A program made the position numbers and the translations under genes. Shown here in pieces: positions 16,021-41,235 of a DNA stretch of 64,000 nucleotides; the stretch's first letter is position 1; each line of letters begins with the position of its first letter. The notes below the pieces were generated by a model. That model did not search any database, was not told the origin of the DNA, and saw nothing but the letters and a program-made list of their open reading frames with translations. This DNA comes from Candidatus Harrisonbacteria bacterium (GTDB lineage: Bacteria > Patescibacteriota > Minisyncoccia > UBA6257 > 02-FULL-45-10c), in NCBI GenBank assembly GCA_016192685.1, contig JACPTS010000001.1, positions 97,710 through 161,709 on the forward strand. Direction: 5' to 3'.

Positions 16021-16050
16021 TCCCTCGATACATCGGGGGATTATTTTTTT
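16021..16050 (+). terminator. Rho-independent terminator (hairpin plus T-run)
   Basis: The hairpin tccctcgat-ac-atcggggga (9-bp stem, one U-G pair) is followed by ttattttttt, directly after the 15121-16020 gene. Confidence 0.7.
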
Positions 16051-23453: not shown

Positions 23454-24386
23454 TTATCTTTTTAGTAAGGCTTCCAAGGCTTTTTTGGCCGCGTCAAGCT
23501 GGGACTGAAGAGCAGATTTAGAAGTAGAAGGGGCTGGGGCTGGAGTCGGTGCTGGAGCCGGCGCCGGAGCTGGTTTTGATTTCAACAAATTCTGCAATGC
23601 CTCTTTAGCCGCGTCAAGCTGGGATTGAAGAGCAGATTTAGAAGTAGCAGGAGCTGAAGCAGGTGCTGGAGTTGGAGCCGGAACAGCTGGTTTTTTTATT
23701 CTGTCTAATAAAGCTTTAAGCTGGCTGGCGGCTGCGTCAAGTTGGGAGCGCAATCTAGACGGAGTGGATGGCGCTGAAACTGGAGCCGCAACAGGCGCTG
23801 GGACTCCTCTTACTTTATTTAGAAGATTTTGAAGTTGTTGTTTCAAATTTTCTAAAAGAGAAGCAGTTGGAGAAAGTGGTCTAGCAGGAGTTAATTGACC
23901 AGCTGGAGTTAATTGAGCTGTTGGAGCTAATGTTGTGCCAGTTCCGCCTCCACCTCCACCACCGCCGCCTCCTCCACCACCACCGCCGCCGCCTCCGCCG
24001 CCAAGACCAGAGCAAGTTTCTGTAGTAGAAGGAGTAATAGTAACCGTAACTGTGCCGGAATCCTGGGCGGCAAAAACAGTAACGGATGATTCAGAAGACG
24101 TACAGCTGGATTCTTGTTGGATGGCGCCAGTAGCAGAAACCGCGAATTTTCTCCGGTCAGTTGAACTCATACCAAAAGATTTGGAAGGGCTCAAAACAAC
24201 ATCCATACTGGCCGTATCCACGGTAATAGAATCAATAACCCGATCAACGGCAGTTACCAAGAAGGTATAACTGCCAATCACTATTTCCGTATTGCCGCCG
24301 CCAGTCAAGGTAAGATCATTCGCGGCAAAAGCAAACAAAGGCAAAAGCAAAGCTGACAAGATTTTTAAATAAATCTTTTTTTTCAT
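23454..24386 (-). CDS. secreted repetitive protein with a 21-residue poly-Gly tract and Pro/Ala-rich C-terminal repeats
   Basis: 310 aa with a signal peptide. G21 run, then three repeats of the type KSALQSQLDAAKEALQNLLK plus PAPAPAP. Confidence 0.7.
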   Translation of the reverse strand: MKKKIYLKILSALLLPLFAFAANDLTLTGGGNTEIVIGSYTFLVTAVDRVIDSITVDTASMDVVLSPSKSFGMSSTDRRKFAVSATGAIQQESSCTSSESSVTVFAAQDSGTVTVTITPSTTETCSGLGGGGGGGGGGGGGGGGGGGGTGTTLAPTAQLTPAGQLTPARPLSPTASLLENLKQQLQNLLNKVRGVPAPVAAPVSAPSTPSRLRSQLDAAASQLKALLDRIKKPAVPAPTPAPASAPATSKSALQSQLDAAKEALQNLLKSKPAPAPAPAPTPAPAPSTSKSALQSQLDAAKKALEALLKR

Positions 24387-26053: not shown

Positions 26054-28240
26054 CTACTTTTGCTTTTTAATTTCCTTAATAAGATTTTCTCCTTCGGTTT
26101 TAAATTCCGGGAAATCTTTTATGGCTTGTTCTAAAGCTTGGGTGGCGGAAGCTTTTTGATTAGCCAAAAGATGAGCGCCGCTTAAGCTTTTCCGGTATTC
26201 AAGATTTTTCGGTTCTAATTTAACAAAAGCCCCCCAGATGCCGGCTAAACGTTTATAATTTTGAACCCGCGAATAAACTTGCACTAAAATCTGATCGGCA
26301 ACATCCGCCGTACCAAATCCTTCCTGTAATAATTTTTCCGCTTCCCTTTGTTGATTATTTAATATGTAGGCGGCGGCTAAATTAATTCGTCCGTTATTAA
26401 ATTCTGAATCAAGTTTAAAAGATTTTTCCAAGACCGCGACGGCATTTTTATAATCCCCTTTTTGAATATAAACATCAGCAATTTCAAAATAAATCTGCTG
26501 TTTTTGAGGAGATAAATCCGAAGCTTTTTTAAAAACTTCTAAAGCTAAGTCTAAAAGGCCCACCTTATTGTAAATAGTTCCTAGAAAAAGATAAGGGCGG
26601 GGATCTAATGCATTTTCAACAACGCTTTTATCGGCTTCTTCAATCGCCTTACGGAGCATTCTGTCCCGAAAATCCGGGACGAGTTCCGGAAGGCCGCCGG
26701 CGCTAATGGCAAATCTTATCAATTGTTCCCCGATTTCTTGATTGCCCAAAGTATTATAAGACAAAGCTTTATTGAATTTTTCAAAAGCCAGCGGAATATT
26801 CTGACCCTGAATTGCTAAAGCATCCAAAAGATTCAAATTGGCCTGAAGAGGCTTAATATTAATAAAATAGATTGCTAAAACCAGCGGCGCGGCCAAAAGG
26901 CCGGCCGCTACCGGCCAATCGCCCCCCCTGCCTCCGCCAGCCGGCGGACTGACGCCGGGAACCGCGGTAGCGGCAGAGATACTATTAATATACGCGAGCA
27001 CGGCAAAAAAACCGATATAAGTGGCAATCTGGTCAAACACAAAAAAGTTTTCCGCTAAATAAACCGCTAAAAATGTGGTGAATAAAAGCGTATTTTCCAA
27101 AGTAAAATTGCCCTTGCGGTAATGGCTCCAAAGCAAATAAATCGCGACCGCAAAAATACTGAAATAAGATAAAGCGCCCAAAATTCCGGCATTAATCAGC
27201 CAATCAAAAACAATGTTATGAGATCGGTCAAACCACGGCTCCTGACGCCAAAGCTCCGATTTAAAATACTTGGAAAAAACCACGCCGTAATTATCCGGCC
27301 CCCAGCCTAAAATAGGCCGCTCCTTAAACCCTTCCCAGCCCATTCCCCAAATCGTGAAACGAGACCTGATAGTTCGTTCACTAAAAGAAAGAGAAGTCAG
27401 TCTAGCGAGAGTGGGGTTATTTTTTACAAACGGCTGATCTTTGGTTAAAAAAATTCCAAGGGGAATTATCAAAGCAATCAGCAGCCAAGCAAGAATAATT
27501 TCTTTTTTCACCAACTCCGCGTGATTTTCGGTCTTTTTAAAAATTAAATATAAAATGCCGAAAACAAAAATACCGATGATCAGGCCCAAAATCGCGCCGC
27601 GGGTGCCGGTAAAATAAATAGTTGCCAACGCCCAAACCGCCATCAAACCGTAAAAATACTTCTGCCATTTTTCCTTCGCCTCCAGCCAAAGAAACAGACA
27701 AAACCATAAAATAAATGTCAAATAAGCGGCTAAATAAGTCGGATTGCCGATGGTGCCGTCCACCCGATAAGAGCCGCCTTGAATAGCGGGCAGAAATTCC
27801 ATCCTTTGAAGAAAGGCGTAGGTATTTTCATAAATACTGGAAACGATAAAAAGGGTGAAAAAAATTTTCCAGTCGGATTTCCGGAAAACATGGGTCAAAA
27901 CCAAAAAATAAGCAAAAAGGTGCAAATAAGCCACCAATCCCTCCATCCGCTCATAATTAGACCAAAAACTTTTTGCCGGATTAACTCCGAAAATCGTCGC
28001 CAAGGCCACCACGGCAATAAAAATCGCCAGAGCGATTAAAAGCGGAGATTTCTTTGGCCGATACTCTTTATAGTAAATCGCTAAAAATACCCAGGCCGCA
28101 AAAACAACTTCTACGATTATCCGAAAAATAAAAGCTTTCCCGGTAATATAAGGAAAAAATAAAACTCGGGAAACATAAAGCGGAATAAACGGAACAATAA
28201 AAAGCCCCCCCTTAATAATCCATAAAATCGCTGATGGCAT
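26054..28240 (-). CDS. O-antigen ligase (Wzy_C)-like membrane protein with C-terminal TPR repeats
   Basis: 728 aa. About 12 TM helices with FTGTRGAILG (Wzy_C-type motif), then a soluble C-terminal region with TPR-like repeats (YNKVGLLDLALEVFKKASDL..., IQKGDYKNAVAVLEKSFKLD...). Confidence 0.8.
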   Translation of the reverse strand: MPSAILWIIKGGLFIVPFIPLYVSRVLFFPYITGKAFIFRIIVEVVFAAWVFLAIYYKEYRPKKSPLLIALAIFIAVVALATIFGVNPAKSFWSNYERMEGLVAYLHLFAYFLVLTHVFRKSDWKIFFTLFIVSSIYENTYAFLQRMEFLPAIQGGSYRVDGTIGNPTYLAAYLTFILWFCLFLWLEAKEKWQKYFYGLMAVWALATIYFTGTRGAILGLIIGIFVFGILYLIFKKTENHAELVKKEIILAWLLIALIIPLGIFLTKDQPFVKNNPTLARLTSLSFSERTIRSRFTIWGMGWEGFKERPILGWGPDNYGVVFSKYFKSELWRQEPWFDRSHNIVFDWLINAGILGALSYFSIFAVAIYLLWSHYRKGNFTLENTLLFTTFLAVYLAENFFVFDQIATYIGFFAVLAYINSISAATAVPGVSPPAGGGRGGDWPVAAGLLAAPLVLAIYFINIKPLQANLNLLDALAIQGQNIPLAFEKFNKALSYNTLGNQEIGEQLIRFAISAGGLPELVPDFRDRMLRKAIEEADKSVVENALDPRPYLFLGTIYNKVGLLDLALEVFKKASDLSPQKQQIYFEIADVYIQKGDYKNAVAVLEKSFKLDSEFNNGRINLAAAYILNNQQREAEKLLQEGFGTADVADQILVQVYSRVQNYKRLAGIWGAFVKLEPKNLEYRKSLSGAHLLANQKASATQALEQAIKDFPEFKTEGENLIKEIKKQK

Positions 28241-28281
28241 TATTCAATAATAGCTCTCATAAATTACTTGTCAAATAAAAC

Positions 28282-28968
28282 CTATCGTTTAATAGCGCGA
28301 AAAACTATTTTTTTCATTCTTTTATGCAAAAACGACAGGAAAAATGCCGCCAGCCGGTCCAACTTATGCTTCCATCCGTAAAAACGCAAAGCATCAGCTC
28401 CTTTGTAATCTGCCACCGCAAATCCGTTTCTTTCCAATAGCTCCTTCATTTCCTCAAAATCAAAAAAGCGGTCGTCTACCGGCTGAATATTTTTCCGCGC
28501 TTTGATATACCGATCAAATAAAATCCAATTTTTATTCGGGACGGTGACAATAAATATTCCGCTGGGACGCAACACACGCCTTACTTCTTCCAAAGCTTTA
28601 TCAAAATCTAAAAGATACGGGAAGACATCCACCATTACCACAAAATCAAACGAGTTATCGGGAAAAGGCATCTGTTCAATATCCGCTTTTAAAATCTTGG
28701 CTTCGGGCACTAAGCTTTTTGCCATAGCAATCAGCCGCTCGGATAAATCAATGCCGGTTAAACTTCTGATATTTCTGCCGCCTCGTTTTTGAATATTTTT
28801 TAACACCACTCCCTGCCCCACTCCGGCTTCTAAAATATCGCCGTGCCAATCCGGCTCAATATCCAAAACTTCATTATAAAATTCCTCCGGCAAACGCATT
28901 TTCTCGGCAATCGCATCATAACCTTCTCCGATATCTTTTTTAGTGACAATAGAACGGTCAATTGGCAT
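28282..28968 (-). CDS. class I SAM-dependent methyltransferase
   Basis: 228 aa. Motif I ILEAGVGQG, then an acidic beta-2 end and the typical post-I/II spacing. Confidence 0.75.
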   Translation of the reverse strand: MPIDRSIVTKKDIGEGYDAIAEKMRLPEEFYNEVLDIEPDWHGDILEAGVGQGVVLKNIQKRGGRNIRSLTGIDLSERLIAMAKSLVPEAKILKADIEQMPFPDNSFDFVVMVDVFPYLLDFDKALEEVRRVLRPSGIFIVTVPNKNWILFDRYIKARKNIQPVDDRFFDFEEMKELLERNGFAVADYKGADALRFYGWKHKLDRLAAFFLSFLHKRMKKIVFRAIKR

Positions 28969-30091
28969 GCTTTTTATTATAGAAATCCAAAATTAATTTT
29001 TCAAAAGTTCTCTCGTAATTTTCCATGGTGTATGATTTAACCATTTCCACGCCGGCTTTTCCCATTCTCTCTCTCGCCGCGCCATCGCGAAGCAAAATTA
29101 AAATTTTATCCGCCAGTTCCGCGGAATTTGCCGGCGGCACCGCAAAACCGGTTTCCCCATTCTTCACAAAAATCGGAATGTCCCCGATCGTAGTGGACAC
29201 TACCGGCTTTCCAAAACTCAATGCTTCCATAATCACAAAAGGCATATCGGTCCTAGTAGACGGATCAACGAAAATATCCGCAATCGGCAAAATATTTTCA
29301 ATGTCCGATTTGCCAAGAAATAATCCGGGAAATAAAACTCTATCTTCCAACTTGAGACTTGAGACTTGAGACTTGAGACTTTCTTCCAGCGGCCCCCAAC
29401 CGACTATTAAAAAATAAGCATTTGGAAATTTTTCCAAAACCAGCTTAGCGGCATCAATCAGATATTTATGCCCCTTTTCCGGAACCAATCGGCTGATCGT
29501 CAAAACAACCATAGCATCCTTTGGCAATTCTAAATCCTTGCGGATTAAATCCGGATTTCTCCCCTTAGATTTATCCACAAAAGACGGCGCGTACATGGTT
29601 ATAAATTTTTCCAAAGGAATTTTTTCCTGCTTAACGGTAAAAAATTTAGCCGCGTCCGAATCCGTGATTATTTTGTCAGTCCATTTGGACAAAATCCAAT
29701 CCATCCAAATCTGCCAGCGATGCTTATCTTCATATATATTATGCTCGTGAATGATAATCACCGGAACTCTCATGATTATCGCGGCCAGACGAACAATCAA
29801 ATTAGCGGAAAAAAGCGCGGTAACTGCCACGTCAAATTTCTCTTTCCGCAAAAAAATGAATAATTTTGTCCAGGCGGCTAAATCAAACAAGGATCGAAAA
29901 TTCAGCCGCTTCCAATAATCATCCGGCAAAACAATTTTTTCCTCAAAAGTGGCGCTTGGTTTCTCAGGAAACAAAGTTAAAAGATACGGCTCAAATTTTC
30001 CCCTATCCACAACGGGCAATTGATTTACCAATAATTTTTCCGCCCCGCCAACCGATAGACGGCCAATGGCAAAAAGTATTTTCTTACGCAT
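28958..30091 (-). CDS. glycosyltransferase family 4 (GT-B)
   Basis: GT4 architecture with a C-terminal EALSFGKPVV...E-x7-E-like region. The start is assigned to the internal Met (MRKKILFAIGRL), which removes the overlap with the downstream gene; the ORF track extends to 30130. Contains the 7-bp repeat tract at 29350-29381. Confidence 0.78.
   Translation of the reverse strand: MRKKILFAIGRLSVGGAEKLLVNQLPVVDRGKFEPYLLTLFPEKPSATFEEKIVLPDDYWKRLNFRSLFDLAAWTKLFIFLRKEKFDVAVTALFSANLIVRLAAIIMRVPVIIIHEHNIYEDKHRWQIWMDWILSKWTDKIITDSDAAKFFTVKQEKIPLEKFITMYAPSFVDKSKGRNPDLIRKDLELPKDAMVVLTISRLVPEKGHKYLIDAAKLVLEKFPNAYFLIVGWGPLEESLKSQVSSLKLEDRVLFPGLFLGKSDIENILPIADIFVDPSTRTDMPFVIMEALSFGKPVVSTTIGDIPIFVKNGETGFAVPPANSAELADKILILLRDGAARERMGKAGVEMVKSYTMENYERTFEKLILDFYNKKHAN
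29350..29381. repeat. heptanucleotide tandem repeat (acttgag, about 4.5 copies) inside the GT4 coding sequence
   Basis: Read directly: aacttgagacttgagacttgagacttgagactt. The 7-nt unit is not a multiple of 3, so copy-number change would frameshift. Confidence 0.9.
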
Positions 30092-31139
30092 AAAGATTTC
30101 CGGTTCTACCGGTAATAGTAAAGTTATCATCTATGTCTTGGAGAGCGGTTTTCCTACTATTATATATGCCGGAATAACCGAGCGCCATTAAAATCCGCTG
30201 TTCTTTAAGTATTTCTTCGGCTGTTATGGAAGTCGGTTTTTTGCGGGCAAGAGACTCCCGCAATTCCGATATCGCCGTAATTGTTCCGCTTAATCCCTTT
30301 TTGATTTTAATATTTCTGATTTTTCCGTTATTATCTTTAAGGCGCAAACTTCTGCCGTCAGACATTATCCAGATCTCTCCTCTTTCGCAAATAAGCCCGG
30401 TGTTTCTGCCGTCCCTGTCGGTTATTAATCCGGAAACTCCGTTTTTAAATTTTACCAATCCAAAATCCAAAACCGGGTCCAAATCAATTTTTTTATTATT
30501 AACATCCTTTTTATTAAATTTAAAAGAAGATTGCGCGTAAGCAACTTCCGAATTATCAGCAAAGTAATTTACTAAATCTACCGAGTGGGGATGAGTCCAC
30601 ATTAACGATGACTTCCCGAATTCAATAATTATCCTATTTAATTTTCCCAAGCGCCCGGATTGGATTATTTTTTTTGTTTGTTGGTAAACCGACGAATAAC
30701 GCCGAACAGCCCCGTAAGAAATTGCTACCCGATTTTTCTGAAGTGCCCTTACCGCTTTTTTGGCATCAGCCAAATTAATGGCTAATGGCTTTTCAATATG
30801 CATTCCTTTAATCCCATGATTGGCCGCGTAGATAATTATATCCGGCCGTTCGGCGGTTCTGGTGGCAATCGTAATAATATCCGGCGATTGCTCGGCAATC
30901 ATCTTTTTAAAATCAGTATAGATATTTTTAACTTTATGCGATTGGCCCGCTTTTTGGGCCAATTCCAAATTAAGATCGCAAACCGCGATTAATTCCACTC
31001 CGGGAGCCGCGCGAATCGCCGCGCAGTGATTTACCGGAAATTCACTGGCCGGTGAAATTTCTCCCGCAACTCTTTTAGTGAAAGCCCCGATGCGGCCGCA
31101 GCCGATAACCGCGGCTTTAATGCTTTTTTGTTTTCCCAT
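30084..31139 (-). CDS. Gfo/Idh/MocA-family NAD(P)-dependent oxidoreductase
   Basis: 351 aa. N-terminal AAVIGCGRIG Rossmann motif and EKPLA consensus. Confidence 0.85.
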   Translation of the reverse strand: MGKQKSIKAAVIGCGRIGAFTKRVAGEISPASEFPVNHCAAIRAAPGVELIAVCDLNLELAQKAGQSHKVKNIYTDFKKMIAEQSPDIITIATRTAERPDIIIYAANHGIKGMHIEKPLAINLADAKKAVRALQKNRVAISYGAVRRYSSVYQQTKKIIQSGRLGKLNRIIIEFGKSSLMWTHPHSVDLVNYFADNSEVAYAQSSFKFNKKDVNNKKIDLDPVLDFGLVKFKNGVSGLITDRDGRNTGLICERGEIWIMSDGRSLRLKDNNGKIRNIKIKKGLSGTITAISELRESLARKKPTSITAEEILKEQRILMALGYSGIYNSRKTALQDIDDNFTITGRTGNLYA

Positions 31140-32205
31140 ACGATAATTTCCGCCAATCTAATAAATAAGTGACTGCCTTCCCATTTCTGGATAATAGTTT
31201 CTGATAAGCGCGCGTTATTTGATCAGCCGGATAGATTCCTGATATTAAATAGTTAGGATTTAATTTCTTTTTGGAAATATCGTTGAGGATTTTTCGGCAA
31301 TTTTTTTGCAAAGTCTTAAACTCCGGTTCGCGTTGACCGGGATTATTTCCCAAGTCCGCGGAAATAATATTGATTTTCCTCGCATAAAAATATCGCGGGT
31401 CTAAAGGATTAAATTTAGGAGCCCCCTCGGTCCTCCCGGGAAAACCAAGAACCGAAATAATACCGTTTTTCCGCGGGAGCCGCAAAGCGATTTTCCAATC
31501 CGACCAGGTATTGGATGTGGTTACGACAATATCAGCTCCTTTCCCGTTAAAATATTTTTTGACCTTTTGCTCAATATCTTTATCGGTTTTCAACAAGGCG
31601 CTGTGAGCGCCTAATTTTTTTGCCAAACGCAATTTTGATTTGCTCGCCGATAATGCCGCGATACGGGCATTAAATAATTTAGCCTGCGCTACGGCGGTTA
31701 GTCCAAGCGTTCCAAGCCCGATAACCGCCACTTTGAAATCTTTTTTAATTTTCCCATTAGTAAGCGCAACGCGGCCAAGATTATAAAGATAAGCAAGCGC
31801 CGCCTGTTCCGGAGCAACCGAATTTGGAACGCGCGCTAAAATTTCAGAAGCTGGCATTTTAAAGACACTGCGATGCGACTGATCCGTAAGTATCAAATCT
31901 CCAGGTTTAAAATCCGCAACTTTTTTTCCAACATATAAAATTTTAGCCGCATTGCAATAGCCGAGCAAGCGCGGATATATTTTACCCGGACGAAGCGGTG
32001 AATCGCCCTTATACGCGGCCACTTCCGTTCCCGGAGAAATAGCGGTTATTACGGTTTGGGCAATAATTTCCGAAGGTTTTAATTTATCGCTATCTATAAC
32101 AACGGGATGGAAAAATATTTTTTTTGGCTTTTTAAGTTCTACAAATGAACCGAAAAATTTCATACCCATATCATTGAAGTTTTGGCCATTTTTCAAATCT
32201 TTCAA
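31117..32205 (-). CDS. MDR-family (alcohol/sorbitol-dehydrogenase-like) oxidoreductase
   Basis: GroES-like N-terminal domain plus Rossmann VAVIGLGTLGLTAV. The start may be the internal Met (MGMKFFG, about 32169), which would remove the 35-nt overlap. Confidence 0.7.
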   Translation of the reverse strand: MKDLKNGQNFNDMGMKFFGSFVELKKPKKIFFHPVVIDSDKLKPSEIIAQTVITAISPGTEVAAYKGDSPLRPGKIYPRLLGYCNAAKILYVGKKVADFKPGDLILTDQSHRSVFKMPASEILARVPNSVAPEQAALAYLYNLGRVALTNGKIKKDFKVAVIGLGTLGLTAVAQAKLFNARIAALSASKSKLRLAKKLGAHSALLKTDKDIEQKVKKYFNGKGADIVVTTSNTWSDWKIALRLPRKNGIISVLGFPGRTEGAPKFNPLDPRYFYARKINIISADLGNNPGQREPEFKTLQKNCRKILNDISKKKLNPNYLISGIYPADQITRAYQKLLSRNGKAVTYLLDWRKLSYGKTKKH

Positions 32206-32752
32206 AAGATTGGACAGATTCCCTGCCGTTTATCATTTCTTGCTCATAGCATAAGCGCATTTTATTTTCCTTATCAGCTTTATTTATTTCAACTGATTTA
32301 TCAGCTACGAAAGGACGGATACCTAATTCAGTCGTTCCTGGCACTTCAAACATCCATACTTCCTTGGGAGTGATAGTTCTGTATGGCCGGCAAGCCACCA
32401 TGACCGCCTCGGAAACCAACCTATGATCTTTGTTCAAATCCCCGATAAAATTCGTATAAACAATATCGGGTTTATGCTTTTGCACCGCGGCTTCAGCGAT
32501 GCTTATAAGTTTTTTTATCGGAAGAGCATCTAACTCTTGATCGGCCAGATTTTCATTGGCATATTCAGCATTTAATAAATTAGCCAGCTTTTTCATCCCC
32601 TCAAACTGTTTTTCGTCCCGGCCTCCGGTGAACCACTGAAAATTGATTTTATCTCCAGCCTCTGAGTGTTTAAGCAGAACTCCTAAACATCCAAACGCCT
32701 CATCGTCAGGATGAGCGGAAATAACCAAAACACTTTTCTTATTTTCTTTCAT
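32171..32752 (-). CDS. PIG-L/LmbE-family N-acetylglucosaminyl deacetylase
   Basis: 193 aa. N-terminal VLVISAHPDDEAFG signature. Confidence 0.8.
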   Translation of the reverse strand: MKENKKSVLVISAHPDDEAFGCLGVLLKHSEAGDKINFQWFTGGRDEKQFEGMKKLANLLNAEYANENLADQELDALPIKKLISIAEAAVQKHKPDIVYTNFIGDLNKDHRLVSEAVMVACRPYRTITPKEVWMFEVPGTTELGIRPFVADKSVEINKADKENKMRLCYEQEMINGRESVQSFERFEKWPKLQ

Positions 32753-33462
32753 TATTTTTTTAAATCTTTTTTTGTAATATTGCCTTCAAAAATTATCTTC
32801 GGACTATTCGGACCCTCATTCAACAGCAAATCCCAAAGACTCATATATGGAACAAAATCCCCCCAAAGTTGGTTATAAGCCGGGTGCTTATAATCTTGAA
32901 AATATAATCCTATGTTGTCCCGCTTAAATGCCTCAGCATCAATATAATCCCGGCCCAATCCGCCGGAAACATAAAGATTGCTTTTCAATCCCTTGCAAAT
33001 ATCCAATACCAGCTCATTTTTTTTGCTTTCATATTTTGGCAAATCCGAAGCTTTGATTATTTTTGTATCTATCCCCAGCGCCGAGTTAAACATCAAAAGC
33101 TGTTCATAGCATAAATCAGAAATATATTTAAAATCTTTTTTATAAAAATCATCAATAATCGGGGAAAATTCATTCCAATATTTCGCTTTTTTATAATTCA
33201 GTTCCAGGGCCTTTTGGTGTTTTTTTTTCCAGGATTGGTCCGCGATTTCTATATCTTTAATCGGCTTGTCAAAATGGCCTTTTAATTTTACCGGCACCGT
33301 AAGCCAAACCGGGCCATTGGCGGTTTTAATTTTATTCCTATTTATAAAACTATTTTTCTCAAACTGCGTGGTGTCAAAAAATACGAAAGTATCCGACAGC
33401 CCGATTTTATGGAAATAACCAAGCCAAGGCGAATAAGCCGGCTGATGAATTGATAAAATCAT
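32752..33462 (-). CDS. WbqC-family protein
   Basis: 236 aa. N-terminal ILSIHQPAYSPWLGYFHKI is characteristic of WbqC-like proteins in O-antigen clusters. Contains an A10 tract. Confidence 0.65.
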   Translation of the reverse strand: MILSIHQPAYSPWLGYFHKIGLSDTFVFFDTTQFEKNSFINRNKIKTANGPVWLTVPVKLKGHFDKPIKDIEIADQSWKKKHQKALELNYKKAKYWNEFSPIIDDFYKKDFKYISDLCYEQLLMFNSALGIDTKIIKASDLPKYESKKNELVLDICKGLKSNLYVSGGLGRDYIDAEAFKRDNIGLYFQDYKHPAYNQLWGDFVPYMSLWDLLLNEGPNSPKIIFEGNITKKDLKK

Positions 33463-34148
33463 AAGGATTTCCTGGCCAAAATTATAAATTCATCATATTC
33501 CATAAATTTACCTTTTATATTCTTTAAAGAATGGCGCATTATATTTTCTAATCTGAATTTTTTAAATAATTCATTAATTTCACCAAGGTTAAAAAAATGC
33601 GCTAAGCCGGCGCGATAAAAGCTGCCTTCTTTAAAATTATTATAAGTATTTTTTCCTATTTTTTTACCGTATTTCTTATCCGGGTGATATTGGCTATAGG
33701 CAAAACTTATGAACAATCCGCCGGGCTTAAGCGATCTAAACACCTCATTCAATGCAACTACAATATCTGGTAAACAATTGGCGTAAATGCTTTCCCGGTC
33801 AATAATAATGTCAAAAAAATTATCAGGATAAGGCAAATTAAGAAAATCTCCTTGCAAAAAATCACCTTTTAAATGCCATTTTGAAAATCTTTCCTTACAA
33901 GCTCTGACAGCGGAATCTGACCCGTCCAGGCCAAAAACTTTAAAGCCGCTCTCGGCTAAAAATTTGGAGTTGTTGCCGGCCCCGCAGCCCAGATCTAAAA
34001 CTTTTATTTTGGATCTTTTTTCTCGCGGGATGGAAAAAAAATTCCTTGCTACGATACTTACCAAAATGTCATAAGGATAAAAATTAAGCTGGCGGCCCTT
34101 TGAATACACTTTCTTTTCCCAAACCTGTTGGTTAGATTTTTTTATCAT
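33459..34148 (-). CDS. class I SAM-dependent methyltransferase
   Basis: 229 aa. Motif I VLDLGCGAGNN. Confidence 0.8.
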   Translation of the reverse strand: MIKKSNQQVWEKKVYSKGRQLNFYPYDILVSIVARNFFSIPREKRSKIKVLDLGCGAGNNSKFLAESGFKVFGLDGSDSAVRACKERFSKWHLKGDFLQGDFLNLPYPDNFFDIIIDRESIYANCLPDIVVALNEVFRSLKPGGLFISFAYSQYHPDKKYGKKIGKNTYNNFKEGSFYRAGLAHFFNLGEINELFKKFRLENIMRHSLKNIKGKFMEYDEFIILARKSL

Positions 34149-35190
34149 GTTTAAAATATTTATATAAGACAGCTCTAATATATTTAATCTGCTTCCCTGA
34201 TAAGCTTGGGTAAATTGGCAAAGACAGGGTTGTTTTGGCCATTTCTTCGCTTACCGGATAATTTTTAGAAGGTAATCCTAAATAATTATGCAGTAATTCA
34301 TATCTTTCTATGGGGACAATTGTTTTAATTTTATTTTTTAAAAAATAATTTTGCAGCCGGCGGGGATTGCTTATTTTTAATATAAAACGGAAAAAATTGG
34401 GTTTAGTTAAACTATTTTTCTTAGGAAATATAATTTCGGGCGTATTCTTTGAATATGCATAGGCAATTTTCTGTCTTTTTTTTAAAAAAAATGGAAGTTT
34501 TTTAAGCTGAGCCCTGCCTATAGCGGCCTGCAGATCGGACATCTGGAAATTAAATCTCGGTTTATAATTCCTGCGGCAATCAAACTCCCGATAATCTTTA
34601 ATTTTCGCTATTAAATTTTTATTTTGGGAAAACACCATTCCCCCATAGCCGGTAGTCATCATCTTGGACGCGTAAAAAGAAAAAATCGCGATATCGCCGA
34701 ATGTACCGACATATTTATTATTAAATTTAGAACCCAGCGCTTGAGCGCAATCTTCAATTATCGGTATTCCCAAATTTAGAAACTTGCGCGTATCAGCCGG
34801 ATAACCGAAAGTATGGGTAATTATTATCGCTTTAGTTCTTCTGTTAACTTTTTTTACCGTCTCAAAATAAGAAAGATTTAAATTTTCAATATCAACTAAA
34901 ACCGGTCTGGCTCCAGCCATAAAAATCGCGTTAAGAACCGCCGAGCAAACATAAGTCGGTAAAATGACTTCGTCTCCCTTGCCGATACCCAAAGAAATCA
35001 GTGCCAGATAAAGAGCCGCTGTCCCGCTGGAAACCGCTGCCGCCTGCCCGGGCTTTTTAAATAAAAATCCGCTGAACTCATCTTCAAACTTTTTTACTTC
35101 GCTTCCCTGCGCTACCCAGCCGGATTTTATAACTCTAGCCGCAGCATCTATTTCTTCTTTGCCTAAAGTCGGTTTATTGTGAGGAATCAT
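34132..35190 (-). CDS. DegT/DnrJ/EryC1/StrS-family PLP-dependent sugar aminotransferase
   Basis: 352 aa. N-terminal SGWVAQGSEVKKFEDEF and a PLP-lysine region (FSFYASKMMTTG). Confidence 0.85.
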   Translation of the reverse strand: MIPHNKPTLGKEEIDAAARVIKSGWVAQGSEVKKFEDEFSGFLFKKPGQAAAVSSGTAALYLALISLGIGKGDEVILPTYVCSAVLNAIFMAGARPVLVDIENLNLSYFETVKKVNRRTKAIIITHTFGYPADTRKFLNLGIPIIEDCAQALGSKFNNKYVGTFGDIAIFSFYASKMMTTGYGGMVFSQNKNLIAKIKDYREFDCRRNYKPRFNFQMSDLQAAIGRAQLKKLPFFLKKRQKIAYAYSKNTPEIIFPKKNSLTKPNFFRFILKISNPRRLQNYFLKNKIKTIVPIERYELLHNYLGLPSKNYPVSEEMAKTTLSLPIYPSLSGKQIKYIRAVLYKYFKHDKKI

Positions 35191-35626
35191 TTTTATAGTA
35201 ACCCTCTTTTATAACAGGCGGATTTCCTATCACCAATGAATAAGGAGGGATTTCGCACGGCTTGGTGATAATTGTTCCGGCCGCCACAACGGTATGATGA
35301 CCGATATGGACGCCGCCGCCGATAAAACAATGGGAACCGATAAAAACATCATTATCAATGGCAATCTTTCTCCTTTCAATTTCTTTTGCTAAGCCGACAG
35401 CCTTTTTATGCGAATCAGCTACATTAATACTGACAAACGAAGCAATGTCGCAATTATCCCCTATTTTTACCAAGGATTCTTGGGCATTAACTTCGGAAAA
35501 AAGCCCGATATAAACATTTTTCCCGAATTCCGGCTGGCCGCCAATATAAACCAAGGGATGAAATTGATTAGCGGGCATCTTAATTAATTTAGCGATAATT
35601 TTATAAAATACGTTCATAATGTTCAT
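35174..35626 (-). CDS. hexapeptide-repeat (LbH) acetyltransferase
   Basis: 150 aa. Repeated [LIV]GxxxxI hexapeptides (IGDNCDI, IGSHCFIGGGVHIGHHTVV). Confidence 0.8.
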   Translation of the reverse strand: MNIMNVFYKIIAKLIKMPANQFHPLVYIGGQPEFGKNVYIGLFSEVNAQESLVKIGDNCDIASFVSINVADSHKKAVGLAKEIERRKIAIDNDVFIGSHCFIGGGVHIGHHTVVAAGTIITKPCEIPPYSLVIGNPPVIKEGYYKNDSSQ

Positions 35627-36681
35627 AAATCTCCCTTCCTAATTATATCGCCCTTTTTGAAATTTCTTTTTGCTATTTTGCCTATAACCTTCGGCAAATA
35701 TTTCGGCGGCAATCCTGTCCCCGGCCTTTTTACTTCCAAATCCTGGACTTTAATTTTTTCTCCTTTTTTAACCGGATTGGCAAACATAATGCTTCTCCGG
35801 GCGATTTTTTTCATTTCCAGTTCTTGCCGGGATAATTTAAATTCCGAACTTCCCGGCATTTGCTCCGCTTCCCTGACTTGCTTAACCAAAAAGTCCAGTT
35901 CTTTCGGATCAGCCGCGAACCAATGATCCGGTCCGGGCAGATTCTTATCCAGAGTAAAATGCTTTTCAATCATTTTTGCTCCCAGAATTACGGCGATGAC
36001 GGCCGCGGCACTGCCCTCGGTATGATCAGAATAACCGATAACGCAATCTTTATAAATCTTTTGCAAAGTTTTAATCTGCGTTAAATTCGCTTCTTTTGGC
36101 GGAGTAGGATATAAAGAAGCGCATTTTAAAATAACTATCTTATTATTATATTTTTTTATTGTGTTTACTGCGTCTTTTATTTCTTCCAAAGCGCTCATCC
36201 CCGTAGAAATAATCATCGGCTTTTTCTTTTGGGCATAATACGCCAGCATCGGAAGATTGGTCAGGTCGTCGGAACCGACCTTAATGGCCGGCATTCCGAT
36301 TTCTTTACCGCAGAGATAATCAACTGTTTTAAAACTATTGTCTTGCGGAGTGGAGAATATGATTATTCCGATTTTCTTGGCATATCCGAATAAATCCTTT
36401 TGCTTTTTTTTATTTAATTCATTCCTTTTAAACATCCCGTATTGGGACTCGGTAATTTTTCTTCCTTGGCTTTTATAGGTATACATTAAATTCTTGTCGC
36501 CGACGAAATCTTCCGTGACAAAGGATTGCAATTTAACGGCATCAGCGCCGGCTTTCTTGGCAGCCGCTATCATTTTTTTAGCCAGGTTTAAATTGCCGTT
36601 ATGATTGATGCCCAATTCCGCCACTATAAAAGTTTTATTCCTGCCGCCTATTTTTTTATTGCCGATTTTTATCTCCGTCAT
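35623..36681 (-). CDS. NeuB-family ulosonic-acid synthase (N-acetylneuraminate/pseudaminate/legionaminate synthase family)
   Basis: 352 aa. IVAELGINHNG, KLQ, YSDHTEG, IEKHFTLDK and a C-terminal SAF/antifreeze-like domain. Confidence 0.88.
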   Translation of the reverse strand: MTEIKIGNKKIGGRNKTFIVAELGINHNGNLNLAKKMIAAAKKAGADAVKLQSFVTEDFVGDKNLMYTYKSQGRKITESQYGMFKRNELNKKKQKDLFGYAKKIGIIIFSTPQDNSFKTVDYLCGKEIGMPAIKVGSDDLTNLPMLAYYAQKKKPMIISTGMSALEEIKDAVNTIKKYNNKIVILKCASLYPTPPKEANLTQIKTLQKIYKDCVIGYSDHTEGSAAAVIAVILGAKMIEKHFTLDKNLPGPDHWFAADPKELDFLVKQVREAEQMPGSSEFKLSRQELEMKKIARRSIMFANPVKKGEKIKVQDLEVKRPGTGLPPKYLPKVIGKIAKRNFKKGDIIRKGDL

Positions 36682-37346
36682 TTGAATTGGTAAGTGCCGT
36701 TTTTAATTTGCCTCACTCCTTGTTTTTCTAATTTAATTCTTTCTTTCATCGCTCTGCTTTTACGGGCCCGGGTAATAATTTTACGCCAAGCTTCCGGCTC
36801 ATACTCCATAACGATATCTTCGGCCGATTTTATTTTTAACTTTGATAAGTTAAGCATTTTTTTTAACGGCCGCAAATCAGCAACATATTTTATCATTGCC
36901 AGAATGCGCGGCAAATGATGTTCATTTGAAATTACAACAGCGCTACGAAATACTCCTCCTTTAAGTATCTTTTGTAATTCTTTCAACTGCTGATAGGTAG
37001 TGCCGGATTTTTCTTCTTTAATTATATTTTTTGCCGGAATGCCAAGTTTAACCAATTCTTCTTTTATCACGCTGGCTAAAGTAATTTTTCCGGGTAAAAC
37101 ATCCTTTAGCTGGCCCTTGCCGCCAGAGGCAATAATTAATTGCTTCGGATTTTCTTTGTATAAAAAACCGGCAGCTATCACTCTTAATCTGTCTCCGCTA
37201 ATGCCGAAATTATCGCCTGTATCGTCAAAAGTAGTAGTGCGCCAGCGACCGCCTTCTTTTACCAAACCGCCGCCAAAAATTACCAAGACATCTAAATTCT
37301 TCATTATTATATAGAACAAAAAATTGGGGCGGCAGTAACAAATCAA
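36678..37346 (-). CDS. DUF218 (YdcF/ElyC/SanA-like) protein
   Basis: 222 aa. IFGGG...IASGG pattern typical of DUF218. Confidence 0.65.
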   Translation of the reverse strand: MICYCRPNFLFYIIMKNLDVLVIFGGGLVKEGGRWRTTTFDDTGDNFGISGDRLRVIAAGFLYKENPKQLIIASGGKGQLKDVLPGKITLASVIKEELVKLGIPAKNIIKEEKSGTTYQQLKELQKILKGGVFRSAVVISNEHHLPRILAMIKYVADLRPLKKMLNLSKLKIKSAEDIVMEYEPEAWRKIITRARKSRAMKERIKLEKQGVRQIKNGTYQFK

Positions 37347-37840
37347 GTAACAATTAGATCAACTTCTTCCCCGTTTTTAATATAAAGCGCATTTGCTTCA
37401 TCAGTATCCAGATGAACCCGAAAATCAAAATTTGGGCTCACCCGAACCAGCACTTTATCCAATCGGCCGGCCCGGACGCCGCCTTTTTGAATAGCCACTT
37501 CATCGCCGTCTTTTAATCCGAGTTCCTGGGCTTGGCGGTCAGAAATATGCAGATGCCGCAATGTTACGGCATATCCGGTTTCTTTATTTCTTTTCCATTT
37601 TGGCGCTGTATCGCGGCCAAAACGCTTAATCCAATCAGTTAAAGACAATTCAAATTGGTCCTCCGATCGGCAAGGCATAATCACCCGAAAATCCTCCATT
37701 CCGTCGTTATAATATTCTTTACTCGCCCATTGTTCCGGCTGGGATAAATCTTTCAGCTTAGTCAATTTCAAACCGGATTTTTTTAAAGTTTCCTCGGTTA
37801 AATGACAATGCTTATTGGAAACCTCGCAGATTACTTTCAT
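37343..37840 (-). CDS. PduL-family phosphate acyltransferase-like protein
   Basis: 165 aa. Two PduL half-repeats: VSNKHCHL and RHLHIS...LGLKDGDEV...GVRAGRLDKVLVRVSPNFDFRVHLDTDEANA. The latter closely matches the Salmonella PduL C-repeat (RHIHMS...LGVKDGDSV...VRVSPKF...HLDTDEANA). Confidence 0.7.
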   Translation of the reverse strand: MKVICEVSNKHCHLTEETLKKSGLKLTKLKDLSQPEQWASKEYYNDGMEDFRVIMPCRSEDQFELSLTDWIKRFGRDTAPKWKRNKETGYAVTLRHLHISDRQAQELGLKDGDEVAIQKGGVRAGRLDKVLVRVSPNFDFRVHLDTDEANALYIKNGEEVDLIVT

Positions 37841-37849
37841 AATTTATTT

Positions 37850-38887
37850 TCAAACTTGGTGCAAATCCGCTTCTTCTACCAAACGCAACAATTCACTTAG
37901 ATCTAATTTAGGAGCGTGTTCGGAAGAAAATTGAATTCCCTTAACTCCCTTAACCGTTGAAGGATAAACCTTAGCGTATTCCCTATTATTTACTTTCTCA
38001 TGGGGAGTTAAAATATACATGTCCTCGGTTTCTAAAACTTTGTCCACCTCATGATTGGCTAAAAGCTGTTCATGAAATTTTTCTCCATCCCGCGCCCCAA
38101 TAACTTTAATCTTTACGTCTTCCTTTTTTTTACCGGCCAAAGGAGCGTAATAATGCACGGCCGCGTCAATTAAATCTCCCAACCGAACCGAGGGCATCTT
38201 CAAAATAAAAATTTCCTGGCCCTGGCTTAAGTTTGCCGCCCGCAAAACCAAATTAACAGCCTGGGGAATGGTCATGACAAACCTGGTCATGTCCGGAGCC
38301 GTAATTGTTATTTCTTTATTGCCAAAAATCTGTTTCCTTAAAAGCGGAAGGAGGCTGCCGCGGCTGCCCAAAACATTGCCGAAACGGACGCAAGAAAACT
38401 TAGTCCTTTTACCGCCTCCATAATAATAGGTGGCTAAAAAAAGTTTTTCAGCCATCAGTTTGGAAACACCCAAAACGCCCTGCGGTTCGGCAACTTTATC
38501 GGTGGAAATCCCGATTACTTGTTCCACATTTTCTTCCCGCGCCGCCTCAATTACATTTTGAACACCGATAATATTAGTTTTTACGGCTTCAAAAGGATTA
38601 TATTCGCAGATTGGAACTTGTTTTAGGGCGGCGGCATGAAAAACAATATCCACGCCATCCATTGCCATTCGCAAACGATCTTTATCTCGAACATCTCCCA
38701 CTATAAATCTAAGCGTTGAATTACCCAAACCAAAATCATGCATCAAATGATAATGGCGGTCTTCATGCCGGGCAAAAATTCGGATTGCCTTGGGATTATA
38801 TTTAAGAAGCTGACGGACAATCTCTAAGCCGATAGAACCTGTGCCGCCGGTCACTAAAATTGTTTTACCTTCAAATTGATTTTTCAT
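37850..38887 (-). CDS. UDP-GlcNAc 4,6-dehydratase (PseB/FlaA1/CapD family)
   Basis: 345 aa. ILVTGGTGSIG, HAAALKQVP, and the TDKAxxP-like block (ISTDKVAEP). Confidence 0.85.
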   Translation of the reverse strand: MKNQFEGKTILVTGGTGSIGLEIVRQLLKYNPKAIRIFARHEDRHYHLMHDFGLGNSTLRFIVGDVRDKDRLRMAMDGVDIVFHAAALKQVPICEYNPFEAVKTNIIGVQNVIEAAREENVEQVIGISTDKVAEPQGVLGVSKLMAEKLFLATYYYGGGKRTKFSCVRFGNVLGSRGSLLPLLRKQIFGNKEITITAPDMTRFVMTIPQAVNLVLRAANLSQGQEIFILKMPSVRLGDLIDAAVHYYAPLAGKKKEDVKIKVIGARDGEKFHEQLLANHEVDKVLETEDMYILTPHEKVNNREYAKVYPSTVKGVKGIQFSSEHAPKLDLSELLRLVEEADLHQV

Positions 38888-40014
38888 TGTTTTTTAATAG
38901 TAGAGATTAATTTTTCGCAAATATATTTGATGTCTGATTCTTTTAAACCAATATAAAAAGGCAACGCCACTGCTTTATTGCTAACATTTTCAGAAATTGG
39001 AAAGTCACCTTCTTTATAACCAAACAAGTTCTTGTAAAAACTAAACAAATGTATAGAAGGCAAATACGGCTTCGTGCTAATTCCTTCCGCTGCTAATTTT
39101 TCAATCAGCTGATTCCGGTTTATTTTTTTATTTTTAAGCGAAACTACATAGACAAACCAGGTGTGGATATTAGCTGGAGCAATAACGGGAACCTGAATGA
39201 AATCGGAATGCGGCTTTAAATATTTTGTATACATTTCAGCAACCTTTCTTCGTTCTGATAAAAGAAAATCAATCTTCTCAATCTGGGCCAATCCGGCAGC
39301 CGCGCTTAATTCATCCATCCGATAGTTATAGCCAAGCCGCTCATGATCCAGCCATTGCATATTTTCCGCCCGGCCCTGATTCCGAAGACTGCGGAATAGT
39401 TGGTCTGATTTTTTATCATTAGTGACAATCATCCCGCCCTCGCCGGTGGTCATTTGCTTATTGGGATAAAAAGCGAAAACCGCTGATTCGCCAAAAGTGC
39501 CAACTTTCCTCCCCTTATAAGTAGCGCCAATGCTTTCGCAGACATCTTCAATGATTTTTAATTTGTATTTTTTGGCGATTTTCATTATCGGATCCATATC
39601 AGTCGCTTGGCCGAAAATATGCACCGCTAAAATCGCTTTGGTTTTTTTGGTAATCTTTTCTTCAATTTTTGCCGGGTTCATATTATAGGTAACCGGATCA
39701 ATATCAACAAAAACCGGCTTAGCGCCGACATATAAAATAGAATTCGCCGAAGCGACAAAAGAAAATGGGGTAGTAATCACTTCATCGCCCGGACCGATGC
39801 CGGCGGCAATCATGGTTAAATGCAACCCAGCCGTGCCGCTGGAAACCGCGCAAGCATATTTAACTCCCATAAAATCAGCGAATTTCTTTTCAAATAATTC
39901 TATTTTAGGGCCAATGCTCAAAATCCCGGAGCGCAAAACTTCTAGAACGTATTGTTCTTCTTTTTTGGTAATATAAGGTTTTGCTATTGAATATTTCTTT
40001 TTTGTTTTTTTCAT
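38884..40014 (-). CDS. DegT-family PLP-dependent aminotransferase (PseC-like)
   Basis: Start placed at the internal Met (MKKTKKKYSIAKPYITKKEE...); the ORF track extends to 40194. Typical DegT N-terminus and FSFVASANS / PLP region. Confidence 0.85.
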   Translation of the reverse strand: MKKTKKKYSIAKPYITKKEEQYVLEVLRSGILSIGPKIELFEKKFADFMGVKYACAVSSGTAGLHLTMIAAGIGPGDEVITTPFSFVASANSILYVGAKPVFVDIDPVTYNMNPAKIEEKITKKTKAILAVHIFGQATDMDPIMKIAKKYKLKIIEDVCESIGATYKGRKVGTFGESAVFAFYPNKQMTTGEGGMIVTNDKKSDQLFRSLRNQGRAENMQWLDHERLGYNYRMDELSAAAGLAQIEKIDFLLSERRKVAEMYTKYLKPHSDFIQVPVIAPANIHTWFVYVVSLKNKKINRNQLIEKLAAEGISTKPYLPSIHLFSFYKNLFGYKEGDFPISENVSNKAVALPFYIGLKESDIKYICEKLISTIKKQ

Positions 40015-40115
40015 TTTAAATGCGTTACTGCTATCTATATAAAACCAAAAAATAAGCCTAAAAGTTTTTAATGAAAATCCACGCAATGGCGTGGATTTTG
40101 TGTAAAGATTATTCT

Positions 40116-40550
40116 TTATTTTTTCCTCCGTTTTCTCAATTTTTCCGAATATTCTTCTGTGGTCATTAAAAATCTGGCCGGTGAACCAGCCCAAACTTCA
40201 TTAGGCGGCAAATCTTTATTTACAAAACTCTGCGCTCCGACAATGGTATTTTCACCAACAGTAATGCCCGGCATCACGATGCTATGCGAACCGATTCGGC
40301 AATTCTTTTTAAGAACCACCAACCCTTGTTTATCATCAATAGTAGAGGCTGAATAAAGGGTGCAATGGGAGCCTATTTGTACTTCATCTTCAATCGTCAC
40401 GCCATGGTGCGCGAAAATCGCGGTAAATGCTCCGATATCTGTTTTTTTACCAAGCTTAAAATTCTCCGGACGATAAACTACCCAATTCCATTTGGTAAGT
40501 TTTCCGTGCTCAATTTTTGGCAGTTGCCAATTTTTAAATCGATTATTCAT
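40116..40550 (-). CDS. hexapeptide-repeat (LbH) acetyltransferase
   Basis: 144 aa. IGSHCTLYSASTI, IGSHSIVMPGITVGENTIVGAQSFV. Confidence 0.8.
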   Translation of the reverse strand: MNNRFKNWQLPKIEHGKLTKWNWVVYRPENFKLGKKTDIGAFTAIFAHHGVTIEDEVQIGSHCTLYSASTIDDKQGLVVLKKNCRIGSHSIVMPGITVGENTIVGAQSFVNKDLPPNEVWAGSPARFLMTTEEYSEKLRKRRKK

Positions 40551-40557
40551 AAATTAA

Positions 40558-41235
40558 TTATTTAATTTTAAAAAGTTTCTTAGCTAATTCAAGGTCTTCA
40601 AAAGTATCTATGTCAACACTTCTTTCAAATGGTATCACGTATTTGCCCAAATCTTTTCCATAATATTTTTTCTCTTTCAAAAAATTAGCAACCTTCACCC
40701 AGCGCACCGCTCCCGAGGGGCAATAGACTTTGGGCAATTTTTTTGAATCAACCAAATATTTTTTCCCAAAAAAGAAATCCAGACGCCCATTTTTTTCTTC
40801 CAGTGCCCAAAACGGATACAGCCAATAGTAATCAACCACGCTCATTAAGCAATTTTTCTTTAATTTCCGTAAAATTTCGTAGGATTTCTTGACGTCTTCC
40901 GAATTTCGCAAGGGGCAATTCGGCATCAGCAGGCATAAATAATCAAATTTTGTTTTAACATTTTTCAACAAATGCGCGGTCACGTCTTCTAATGACGCCT
41001 TATCGCCGGAAATTTCCGCCGGGCGAAGAATCTTTTTAACGCCTTTATAAGAATCGGCCGCGTTTAATATTTCCTCTGAATCAGAAGAAATATAAATACT
41101 ATCGCCAAAAAGCCCTGATTTTATAGCCGCTTCAATTGTATGGGCAATCATCGGCTTGCCGTGAAAATCAACAATATTCTTTTTGGGAATTCTTTTTGAA
41201 CCGCCCCTGGCCGGAATAAGACAAATATTTTTCAT
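40558..41235 (-). CDS. acylneuraminate cytidylyltransferase family (CMP-ulosonic-acid synthetase)
   Basis: 225 aa. N-terminal ICLIPARGGSKRIPKKN signature. Confidence 0.85.
   Translation of the reverse strand: MKNICLIPARGGSKRIPKKNIVDFHGKPMIAHTIEAAIKSGLFGDSIYISSDSEEILNAADSYKGVKKILRPAEISGDKASLEDVTAHLLKNVKTKFDYLCLLMPNCPLRNSEDVKKSYEILRKLKKNCLMSVVDYYWLYPFWALEEKNGRLDFFFGKKYLVDSKKLPKVYCPSGAVRWVKVANFLKEKKYYGKDLGKYVIPFERSVDIDTFEDLELAKKLFKIK

Follow-up and report, generated by a model that had tools for sequence, protein, structure and literature searches.

The closest described counterparts of the locus analysed here are repeat-bearing genes of host-adapted pathogens. In Neisseria meningitidis and Neisseria gonorrhoeae, the pilin O-glycosylation gene pglE undergoes phase variation through an intragenic heptanucleotide repeat (PMC7157529), and pglA and pglE act sequentially (PMC4235727). 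In Haemophilus influenzae, simple sequence repeat (SSR) loci include tetranucleotide repeats in lipopolysaccharide genes, AACAACC in the open reading frame (ORF) of a TonB-dependent receptor, TGAAAGA in the hmw promoters and AATTTTG (14 copies) inside hmw1a, and proven heptamer switches are usually much longer than the tract described below, with 13-38 units (PMC2651432). Phase-variable SSRs are also biased to the N-termini of ORFs, a position that is typical and not obligatory (PMC3315296). For the Candidate Phyla Radiation (CPR, Patescibacteria), a literature search on SSR phase variation returned nothing; the nearest case there is a hypervariable 9-mer (PTD) coding repeat of Gracilibacteria, discussed as slipped-strand mispairing (PMC6851277). 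Here we analyse a perfect heptanucleotide tract inside a family 4 glycosyltransferase (GT4) gene of Candidatus Harrisonbacteria, an ultra-small CPR bacterium from groundwater; the gene lies in a 64,000-nt stretch of contig JACPTS010000001.1 (hereafter the window, numbered from its first letter). An original prediction made from this sequence had proposed the tract as a phase-variation switch. The reading we favour, with as much confidence as reserve, is that of a coding microsatellite maintained by slippage at a length fixed by selection, in a structurally permissive helix, and thus of a latent, probably rare frameshift site.

The tract (window 29350-29381, ACTTGAGACTTGAGACTTGAGACTTGAGACTT) consists of four and a half copies of the heptamer ACTTGAG with zero mismatches, just where the original prediction had placed it, and was recovered by Tandem Repeats Finder (TRF) with period 7, 4.6 copies, 100% matches and a score of 64. 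This lies above the three units from which heptamers are counted as candidate SSRs (PMC2651432). In 200 simulated windows (Markov-1), the longest perfect period-7 tract had a mean of 15.5 nt and a maximum of 22 nt, against the 32 nt observed, and the second-longest such tract of the real window is 16 nt. The codons of the tract are rare in the genome (CTC is 4% of Leu, AAG 20% of Lys, AGT 11% and TCA 10% of Ser, GTC 15% of Val): given the peptide, the codon choice has a probability of ~1.5e-9 under the genome's own usage, and synonymous-codon resampling at fixed peptide gave p<5e-5 for the array. TRF and a period scan agreed with the original prediction that this is the sole perfect non-triplet SSR with at least three units in the window, the other short runs being poly-A/T of 8-9 nt and one (TC)5. 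The latter (29066-29075) also lies within the GT4 gene, where it codes for ...ARER..., and is the window's only dinucleotide run of at least five units; it is probably due to chance. Two further ideas were discarded: hairpin-assisted slippage, as the tract has no secondary-structure potential, and a genome-wide motif, as each rotation of the heptamer occurs only 4-8 times in the window, mostly in the tract itself.

That the repeat was produced by assembly or sequencing is scarcely credible. Logan assemblies of at least eight sequencing runs match the window at 100% identity across 3-7 kb, and its GT4 product matches the protein of the NCBI metagenome-assembled genome; an assembly artefact is unlikely because of this agreement. 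Moreover, the 32 nt are shorter than a read and should contain no repeated 31-mer that a de Bruijn graph with k=31 could collapse, the ORF is intact and the helix that it encodes has the canonical length. The carriers of the allele in these runs (at least eight) are one clone, and all allele comparisons given here are between consensus assemblies.

From its sequence, the gene product is a predicted GT4 glycosyltransferase (GT-B fold) to which we assign neither an equivalog family nor a donor or acceptor. Translation starts at M14 of a 390-aa ORF (28958-30130), where ATGCGTAA overlaps the stop of the upstream gene; exact look-up of the 390-aa product gave no match, the annotated protein beginning at M14. 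Both halves of the fold were recovered by Pfam (Glycos_transf_1, E=1.9e-37, 128.9 bits, cut-off 26.4; Glyco_transf_4, E=5.2e-09, 36.8 bits, cut-off 28.5), and phmmer matched the solved GT4 enzymes 2jjm, 3mbo, 3c48, 5d00 and 3oka with E values of 1e-12 to 1e-16; no NCBIfam model reached its curated cut-off (best TIGR03088, 105.8 bits vs 409). The AlphaFold2 model (mean predicted local distance difference test, pLDDT, of 88, and 91-97 locally) shows alternating strand-helix elements in two Rossmann-like domains. The original prediction had located the tract between these domains, which is incorrect: both Pfam and AlphaFold2 place it inside the C-terminal domain (aa 250-261 of the 390-aa ORF), in the helix after the GWGP loop and upstream of the conserved E289 region of the same domain, which would be lost after a frameshift. 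It spans nt 711-742 of 1134, that is 63-65% into the gene and not near the 5' end.

At the protein level, the tract is a well-formed piece of this fold. The encoded peptide, SLKSQVSSLKLE, was read correctly in the original prediction and forms for the most part an amphipathic surface helix (236-245 in the AlphaFold2 model), between a strand at 225-230 (ending VGWGP) and one at 252-253 (RVLF). It aligns without gaps to the same helix of 2jjm (GWGPLEESLKSQVSSLKLEDRVLF vs GDGPEFCTILQLVKNLHIEDRVLF), and therefore 4.6 units make up exactly the canonical helix length. Read across its three codon phases, (AAGTCTC)n gives S-L-K-S-Q-V-S, so that three units encode seven residues, one heptad, with hydrophobic residues at i and i+4.

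The frame consequences of slippage are as the original prediction stated: the unit is not divisible by three, and a one-unit slip frameshifts the gene. Simulated alleles of -2, -1, +1 and +2 units reach a stop after 258, 296, 265 and 303 aa of the 390-aa ORF, respectively, and lose the C-terminal catalytic half; alleles of -3 and +3 units stay in frame. A premature stop in the GT4 gene would probably also lower translation of the downstream methyltransferase gene, because the latter begins at an ATG within the last GT4 codons and no Shine-Dalgarno sequence is obvious there; the two genes are probably translationally coupled.

Among relatives, the length of this segment hardly varies. A homology search with the 377-aa protein gave 376 matches, and the segment between GWG and PG was scored in 92 of the best 100: ~87 of the 92 have the same 21 residues, and a 7-residue difference was seen in none of them (0/92). 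Peptides resembling SLKSQVxSLKLE recur at this length down to ~55% identity, also in homologs whose DNA carries no perfect repeat. No near-identical truncated protein was found among the 376 matches, the predicted products of -3 to +3 units were absent from a collection of 15 billion proteins, and the GT4 protein cluster has a single member. The original prediction had looked to related genomes for a change in copy number; there, every assembly had one length, as did the ~87 homologs, and no frameshifted allele was found. It had also said that a constant copy number, with the peptide conserved in homologs lacking the DNA repeat, would speak against a switch, and this is largely the pattern observed: the length is constant and the peptide occurs without the perfect repeat.

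The DNA of these relatives nevertheless carries the mark of a repeat. From a set of ~130 ortholog loci (numbered with an L below), 42 distinct orthologs were scored, and most of those with an SLK-type helix show a degenerate AAGTnnn x4.5 pattern at exactly the site of the tract. In 20 of the 42, the gene has its strongest period-7 signal in this 36-nt segment, with lag-7 scores of 17-26 of 29 that are unequalled elsewhere in the gene (across the 18,927 coding windows of the background, scores reach 16 at the 99.9th percentile and 19 at most); no such signal is seen in the 22 orthologs whose helix is of the ordinary LxxQAxxLGI type. The excess over synonymous-codon resampling is confined to lag 7, with p<5e-5 for the window, L054, L058 and L128 and 0.0002-0.015 for most others, these per-sequence values being non-independent because of the shared phylogeny of the orthologs. 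Each of the 20 array-bearing orthologs is in frame and has the same length, and none of the orthologs was found to be frameshifted at the array.

Perfect or near-perfect arrays recur in this family with different units. The window's own unit is found in L128 (AAGTCTC x3.9; 58% protein identity; sister to the decayed L059/L060), L013 has CAAATTA x4.4, perfect over 31 nt (49% identity; a decayed version occurs in its relative L129/L130), L081 has AAATCAA x3.5 (48% identity), and L054 (85% identity) carries 2+2 units (CTC, CTC, CTT, CTT), a pattern that would be expected of unit turnover. In a neighbour-joining tree, such arrays fall in separate clades, beside decayed ones. Thus AAGTCTC x4 in the window, AAATTAC x4 in L013 and AAATCAA x3.5 in L081 stand against decayed arrays in L004, L059, L070 and L130, which is the pattern of concerted evolution. 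When substitution alone was simulated from sister-like starts at the gene-wide divergence, the observed perfect runs were reached in 0 of 500,000 trials for every pair. Since substitution cannot build the perfect arrays, the units appear to turn over by slippage. The three perfect units differ, and no more than one of them can be the ancestral one; neighbouring units must therefore have been copied over one another. We infer that this copying is a form of concerted evolution, through slipped-strand turnover or through transient misalignment.

The arrays are also better preserved than the genes around them. Between the window and L128, which differ at 35% of nucleotides, the longest identical run (34 nt) covers the array and the next is 17 nt; codon identity is 8/10 inside the array vs a background of 0.55, which is not decisive alone. 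Of the 36 array positions, 5 differ between L013 and L130, vs 41% gene-wide (P=4e-4). Short-patch horizontal transfer between the window and L128 is unlikely because the identity stops at the array borders. Convergence on the same unit is possible, as AGTCTCA is, by the genetic code, the only heptamer whose three phases spell SLKSQVS.

These data bear on two readings in which slippage has no part at the site. The first holds that the tract is an inert relic, an ancestral low-complexity helix with repeat-like codons that was kept by selection on the peptide and by slow synonymous decay. The peptide does match the canonical GT4 helix LKxQ[AV]KxL[GK]LE residue for residue and at the same length in nearly all homologs, no length variation was observed, and the randomisation of synonymous sites is incomplete (for conserved residues in the rest of the gene, distant orthologs have a codon identity of 0.5-0.6). 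We nevertheless regard a relic as quite improbable: the three different perfect units cannot each be the ancestral one, simulated point substitution never reached the perfect arrays, the codon choice is too extreme given the peptide in both tests described above, and the arrays are far better conserved than the remainder of the gene. The second reading, which we consider very improbable, invokes an element acting in DNA or RNA, either an iterated protein-binding site, an internal regulator of the methyltransferase gene or a rare-codon pause that aids folding. It could account for the rare-codon cluster and for the array being the gene's most conserved nucleotide stretch in one deep comparison (the window vs L128), but a specific recognition sequence fits poorly with units that differ by lineage (AAGTCTC, CAAATTA, AAATCAA), the tract has no secondary-structure potential and the rest of the window shows no enrichment of the heptamer. 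A 7-nt spacing is, furthermore, out of phase with the DNA helix.

A few orthologs depart from the common pattern. One (L132:1001-2134, P0021) has 9 extra nt in the array region, with at least five xxGTCAA units (AAGTCAA CGGTCAA TAGTCAA ATGTCAA ATGTTAT) and a peptide, SLKSTVNSQMSNVISSQV, of 7-residue periodicity; it may represent a fixed change of array length, of +1 unit plus a compensating 2 nt or of +3 units minus 12 nt. On a Rifle metagenome contig (L082:214-1319), the frame changes near residue 120, away from the array, which marks either a pseudogene or a sequencing error. L086 gave an odd match that was rejected as a slip at the array, being a partial duplication with palindromic inserts: in L086:431-1567, a palindromic insert is followed by a tandem duplication of the beginning of the C-terminal domain (query residues 183-239, including GWGPLKEKL), in what is either a rearranged gene or a contig-end assembly chimera. 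In-frame insertions of 30-100 nt at the helix or loop of the array occur in several orthologs (L131:1745-1783, L064:1349-1390, L089:198-242 and L086, whose inserts at 575-604, 968-1003 and 1286-1393 lie also at the inter-domain linker). At the DNA level, these insertions form strong palindromes (hairpins of -9 to -38 kcal/mol); that of L086 is present three times in the gene and is similar to the insert of L089 (86% over 37 nt). They have the look of a small palindromic element with in-frame insertion, which we take to be reminiscent of the Rickettsia palindromic elements.

Altogether, the comparisons suggest a site that is mutationally alive on evolutionary timescales while its total length is constant. 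In the mechanism we propose, replication slippage would create the tract and keep its units homogeneous, and selection would fix the total length, since both the reading frame and the canonical helix length are needed. At this fixed length, units would decay by point mutation, and slipped-strand turnover would then make them uniform again, at times with a new unit. A net change of one or two units in either direction would truncate the enzyme before its catalytic half and probably uncouple translation of the methyltransferase. Switching is most likely rare today, at a low present-day slippage rate, because there are only four units and no polymorphism was observed; a side effect of slippage at a permissive helix seems likelier than a tuned contingency switch. 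Several points weigh against this reading of the microsatellite. Single-unit slips that homogenise a four-unit array imply frameshifted (OFF) intermediates, as in a phase-variable locus, and the boundary with a true switch is then one of rate and selection. The window's perfect unit is present in two lineages that are only 58% identical, and selection could have acted on the perfection of the repeat, that is on mutability. The surface-glycan operon around the gene is a typical setting for contingency loci. Finally, sampling is thin, the allele-bearing runs stemming from one clone and from consensus assemblies.

That operon comprises ~16 tightly overlapping genes on the strand of the GT4 gene (Table 1). 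It encodes a cytidylyltransferase, two DegT aminotransferases, a PseB-like dehydratase, NeuB, a hexapeptide acetyltransferase, methyltransferases, WbqC, PIG-L, two dehydrogenases, the GT4 enzyme and a Wzy_C/TPR ligase-like protein, and judged by this predicted gene content it is a nonulosonic-acid-type surface-glycan operon, the glycan itself being left unassigned.

Table 1. Features of the GT4 locus and its surroundings (positions in the window; SAM, S-adenosylmethionine).
Feature	Position	Strand	Remarks
GT4 glycosyltransferase gene, 377 aa	28958..30091	-	identical to NCBI MBI3046042.1, Candidatus Harrisonbacteria
N-terminal Rossmann domain, Pfam Glyco_transf_4 (PF13439)	29630..30052	-	aa 27-167 of the 390-aa ORF
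C-terminal Rossmann domain, Pfam Glycos_transf_1 (PF00534)	29051..29545	-	aa 196-360 of the 390-aa ORF; contains the tract
Perfect heptanucleotide tract	29350..29381	-	coding strand AAGT(CTCAAGT)x4 = (AAGTCTC)x4.6, 32 nt; sequence, TRF, chance tests
Twelve codons AGT CTC AAG TCT CAA GTC TCA AGT CTC AAG TTG GAA	29345..29380	-	S238-E249 (377-aa numbering), SLKSQVSSLKLE
TAG stop, frame of +1 or -2 units	29340..29342	-	8 nt past the tract; product ends ...SLKSQVGR
TGA stop, frame of -1 or +2 units	29233..29235	-	simulated alleles, sequence
Class I SAM methyltransferase, downstream	28282..28968	-	ATG within the last GT4 codons, 11-nt overlap, no visible Shine-Dalgarno sequence
GFO/IDH/MocA-type oxidoreductase, upstream	30084..31139	-	stop overlaps the GT4 start
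Same-strand glycan operon	26054..41235	-	~16 tightly overlapping genes

With this context, the switch of the original prediction can be weighed. A true contingency locus, in which the perfection of the repeat is kept by selected mutability and slipped-strand mispairing toggles the GT4 gene (and the coupled methyltransferase gene) ON and OFF, would diversify the surface glycan of an episymbiont against phages or for host-cell recognition. The frame mechanics, the operon and past slippage at the site all stand on its side: the SSR is perfect, non-triplet and intragenic, off-frame stops follow at once, the unit number is above the H. influenzae threshold for heptanucleotides (PMC2651432), and pglE offers the precedent of a pilin-glycan gene with a heptanucleotide repeat (PMC7157529). 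Perfect arrays are, moreover, conserved or convergent across deep divergence, with independent re-homogenisation in at least three lineages, and their rare-codon makeup leaves translation efficiency as no explanation. On the other hand, the searches revealed no polymorphism in copy number (a single allele across at least eight runs, a single-member cluster, no variant in 15 billion proteins); the 20 array-bearing orthologs are all in frame at one length and most of their arrays are decayed, hence not mutable; and the tract has four units only, lies 65% into its gene, is accompanied by no further SSR candidate in the 64-kb window and is found in a group of bacteria for which the literature search returned no SSR phase variation. 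With no length variant, phase variation is thus possible only, and we hold a contingency locus to be a doubtful though serious alternative. The wider claim that Harrisonbacteria and related Parcubacteria keep a heptanucleotide switch at one structural site of GT4, with perfect arrays maintained or re-created for their mutability, appears unlikely.

Some other parts of the window are of interest in themselves. The stretch 35623-41235 holds a complete-looking nonulosonic-acid pathway in a CPR genome (NeuB, two DegT proteins, PseB-like dehydratase, acetyltransferase and cytidylyltransferase), which also encloses a DUF218 protein and, at 37343-37840, a protein with a PTAC (phosphate propanoyltransferase) domain; PTAC is unexpected in a glycan operon. 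Two CCG-type triplet tracts (16737-16778 and 23944-24003, of 12 and ~20 units with 75-87% match) lie beside the operon, the first inside a giant 2369-aa ORF (16049-23158, minus strand) and the second inside a 310-aa ORF without Pfam match (23454-24386, minus strand). Both encode Gly-rich low complexity on the coding strand, and the two ORFs are probable surface proteins. At 628-747, ~120 very AT-rich nt contain overlapping degenerate tandem repeats with periods of 7, 11, 14 and 20-21 (for instance AATTCAA x4.6 at 76% match); the segment looks intergenic and could be a promoter or origin-like region.

What the tract means depends on which of these readings holds. CPR cells are tiny, uncultured and live attached to other microbes. 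Were the tract a true switch, the Candidate Phyla Radiation would have its first example of classical phase variation, an ON/OFF variation of a nonulosonic-acid-containing surface glycan in uncultured episymbionts; CPR bacteria would then share surface-glycan bet-hedging with host-adapted pathogens, which bears on phage evasion and host recognition. If it does not switch, it would be a natural example of slippage writing and rewriting a protein helix whose length is held by selection, and the recurrent re-homogenisation of an array at a fixed helix deserves attention in its own right. The case also cautions against inferring phase variation from one genome.

Compared with known systems, the tract is similar in kind to that of pglE. 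Both are 7-nt repeats inside an ORF in which a change of one unit shifts the frame, and pglE extends a surface glycan. However, switching of pglE is seen between isolates and within carriers, whereas no copy-number variation was observed for the GT4 tract; the latter is also carried by a CPR bacterium and not by a host-adapted proteobacterium. With the H. influenzae loci it shares a non-triplet SSR within or next to genes for surface structures, in a class where heptamers of at least three units are counted as candidates (PMC2651432). Those tracts nevertheless vary among strains (1-13 and 13-38 units), some being out of frame, while the GT4 tract has 4.6 units everywhere it was sampled and a fixed position within a structural helix. 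Of the poly-G genes for capsule, lipooligosaccharide and flagellar glycan of Campylobacter jejuni (PMC8437040, PMC6321876), many likewise modify sugars in nonulosonic-acid or surface-glycan clusters, and they frameshift by slipped-strand mispairing; those tracts are homopolymeric, many per genome and of measured switching, whereas this window has no second candidate. The Gracilibacteria 9-mer is, like the GT4 heptamer, a coding tandem repeat in a CPR genome, but its unit is triplet-compatible and its long array is hypervariable within populations, changing protein length with no ON/OFF effect. Finally, the GT4 enzymes BshA (2jjm, 5d00), MshA (3c48) and PimA/PimB' (3oka) have the same two Rossmann domains and the same helix after the GxGP loop; in these enzymes, as in 22 of the 42 orthologs, that helix is encoded by non-repetitive DNA, in contrast to the heptanucleotide array that spells it in the window.

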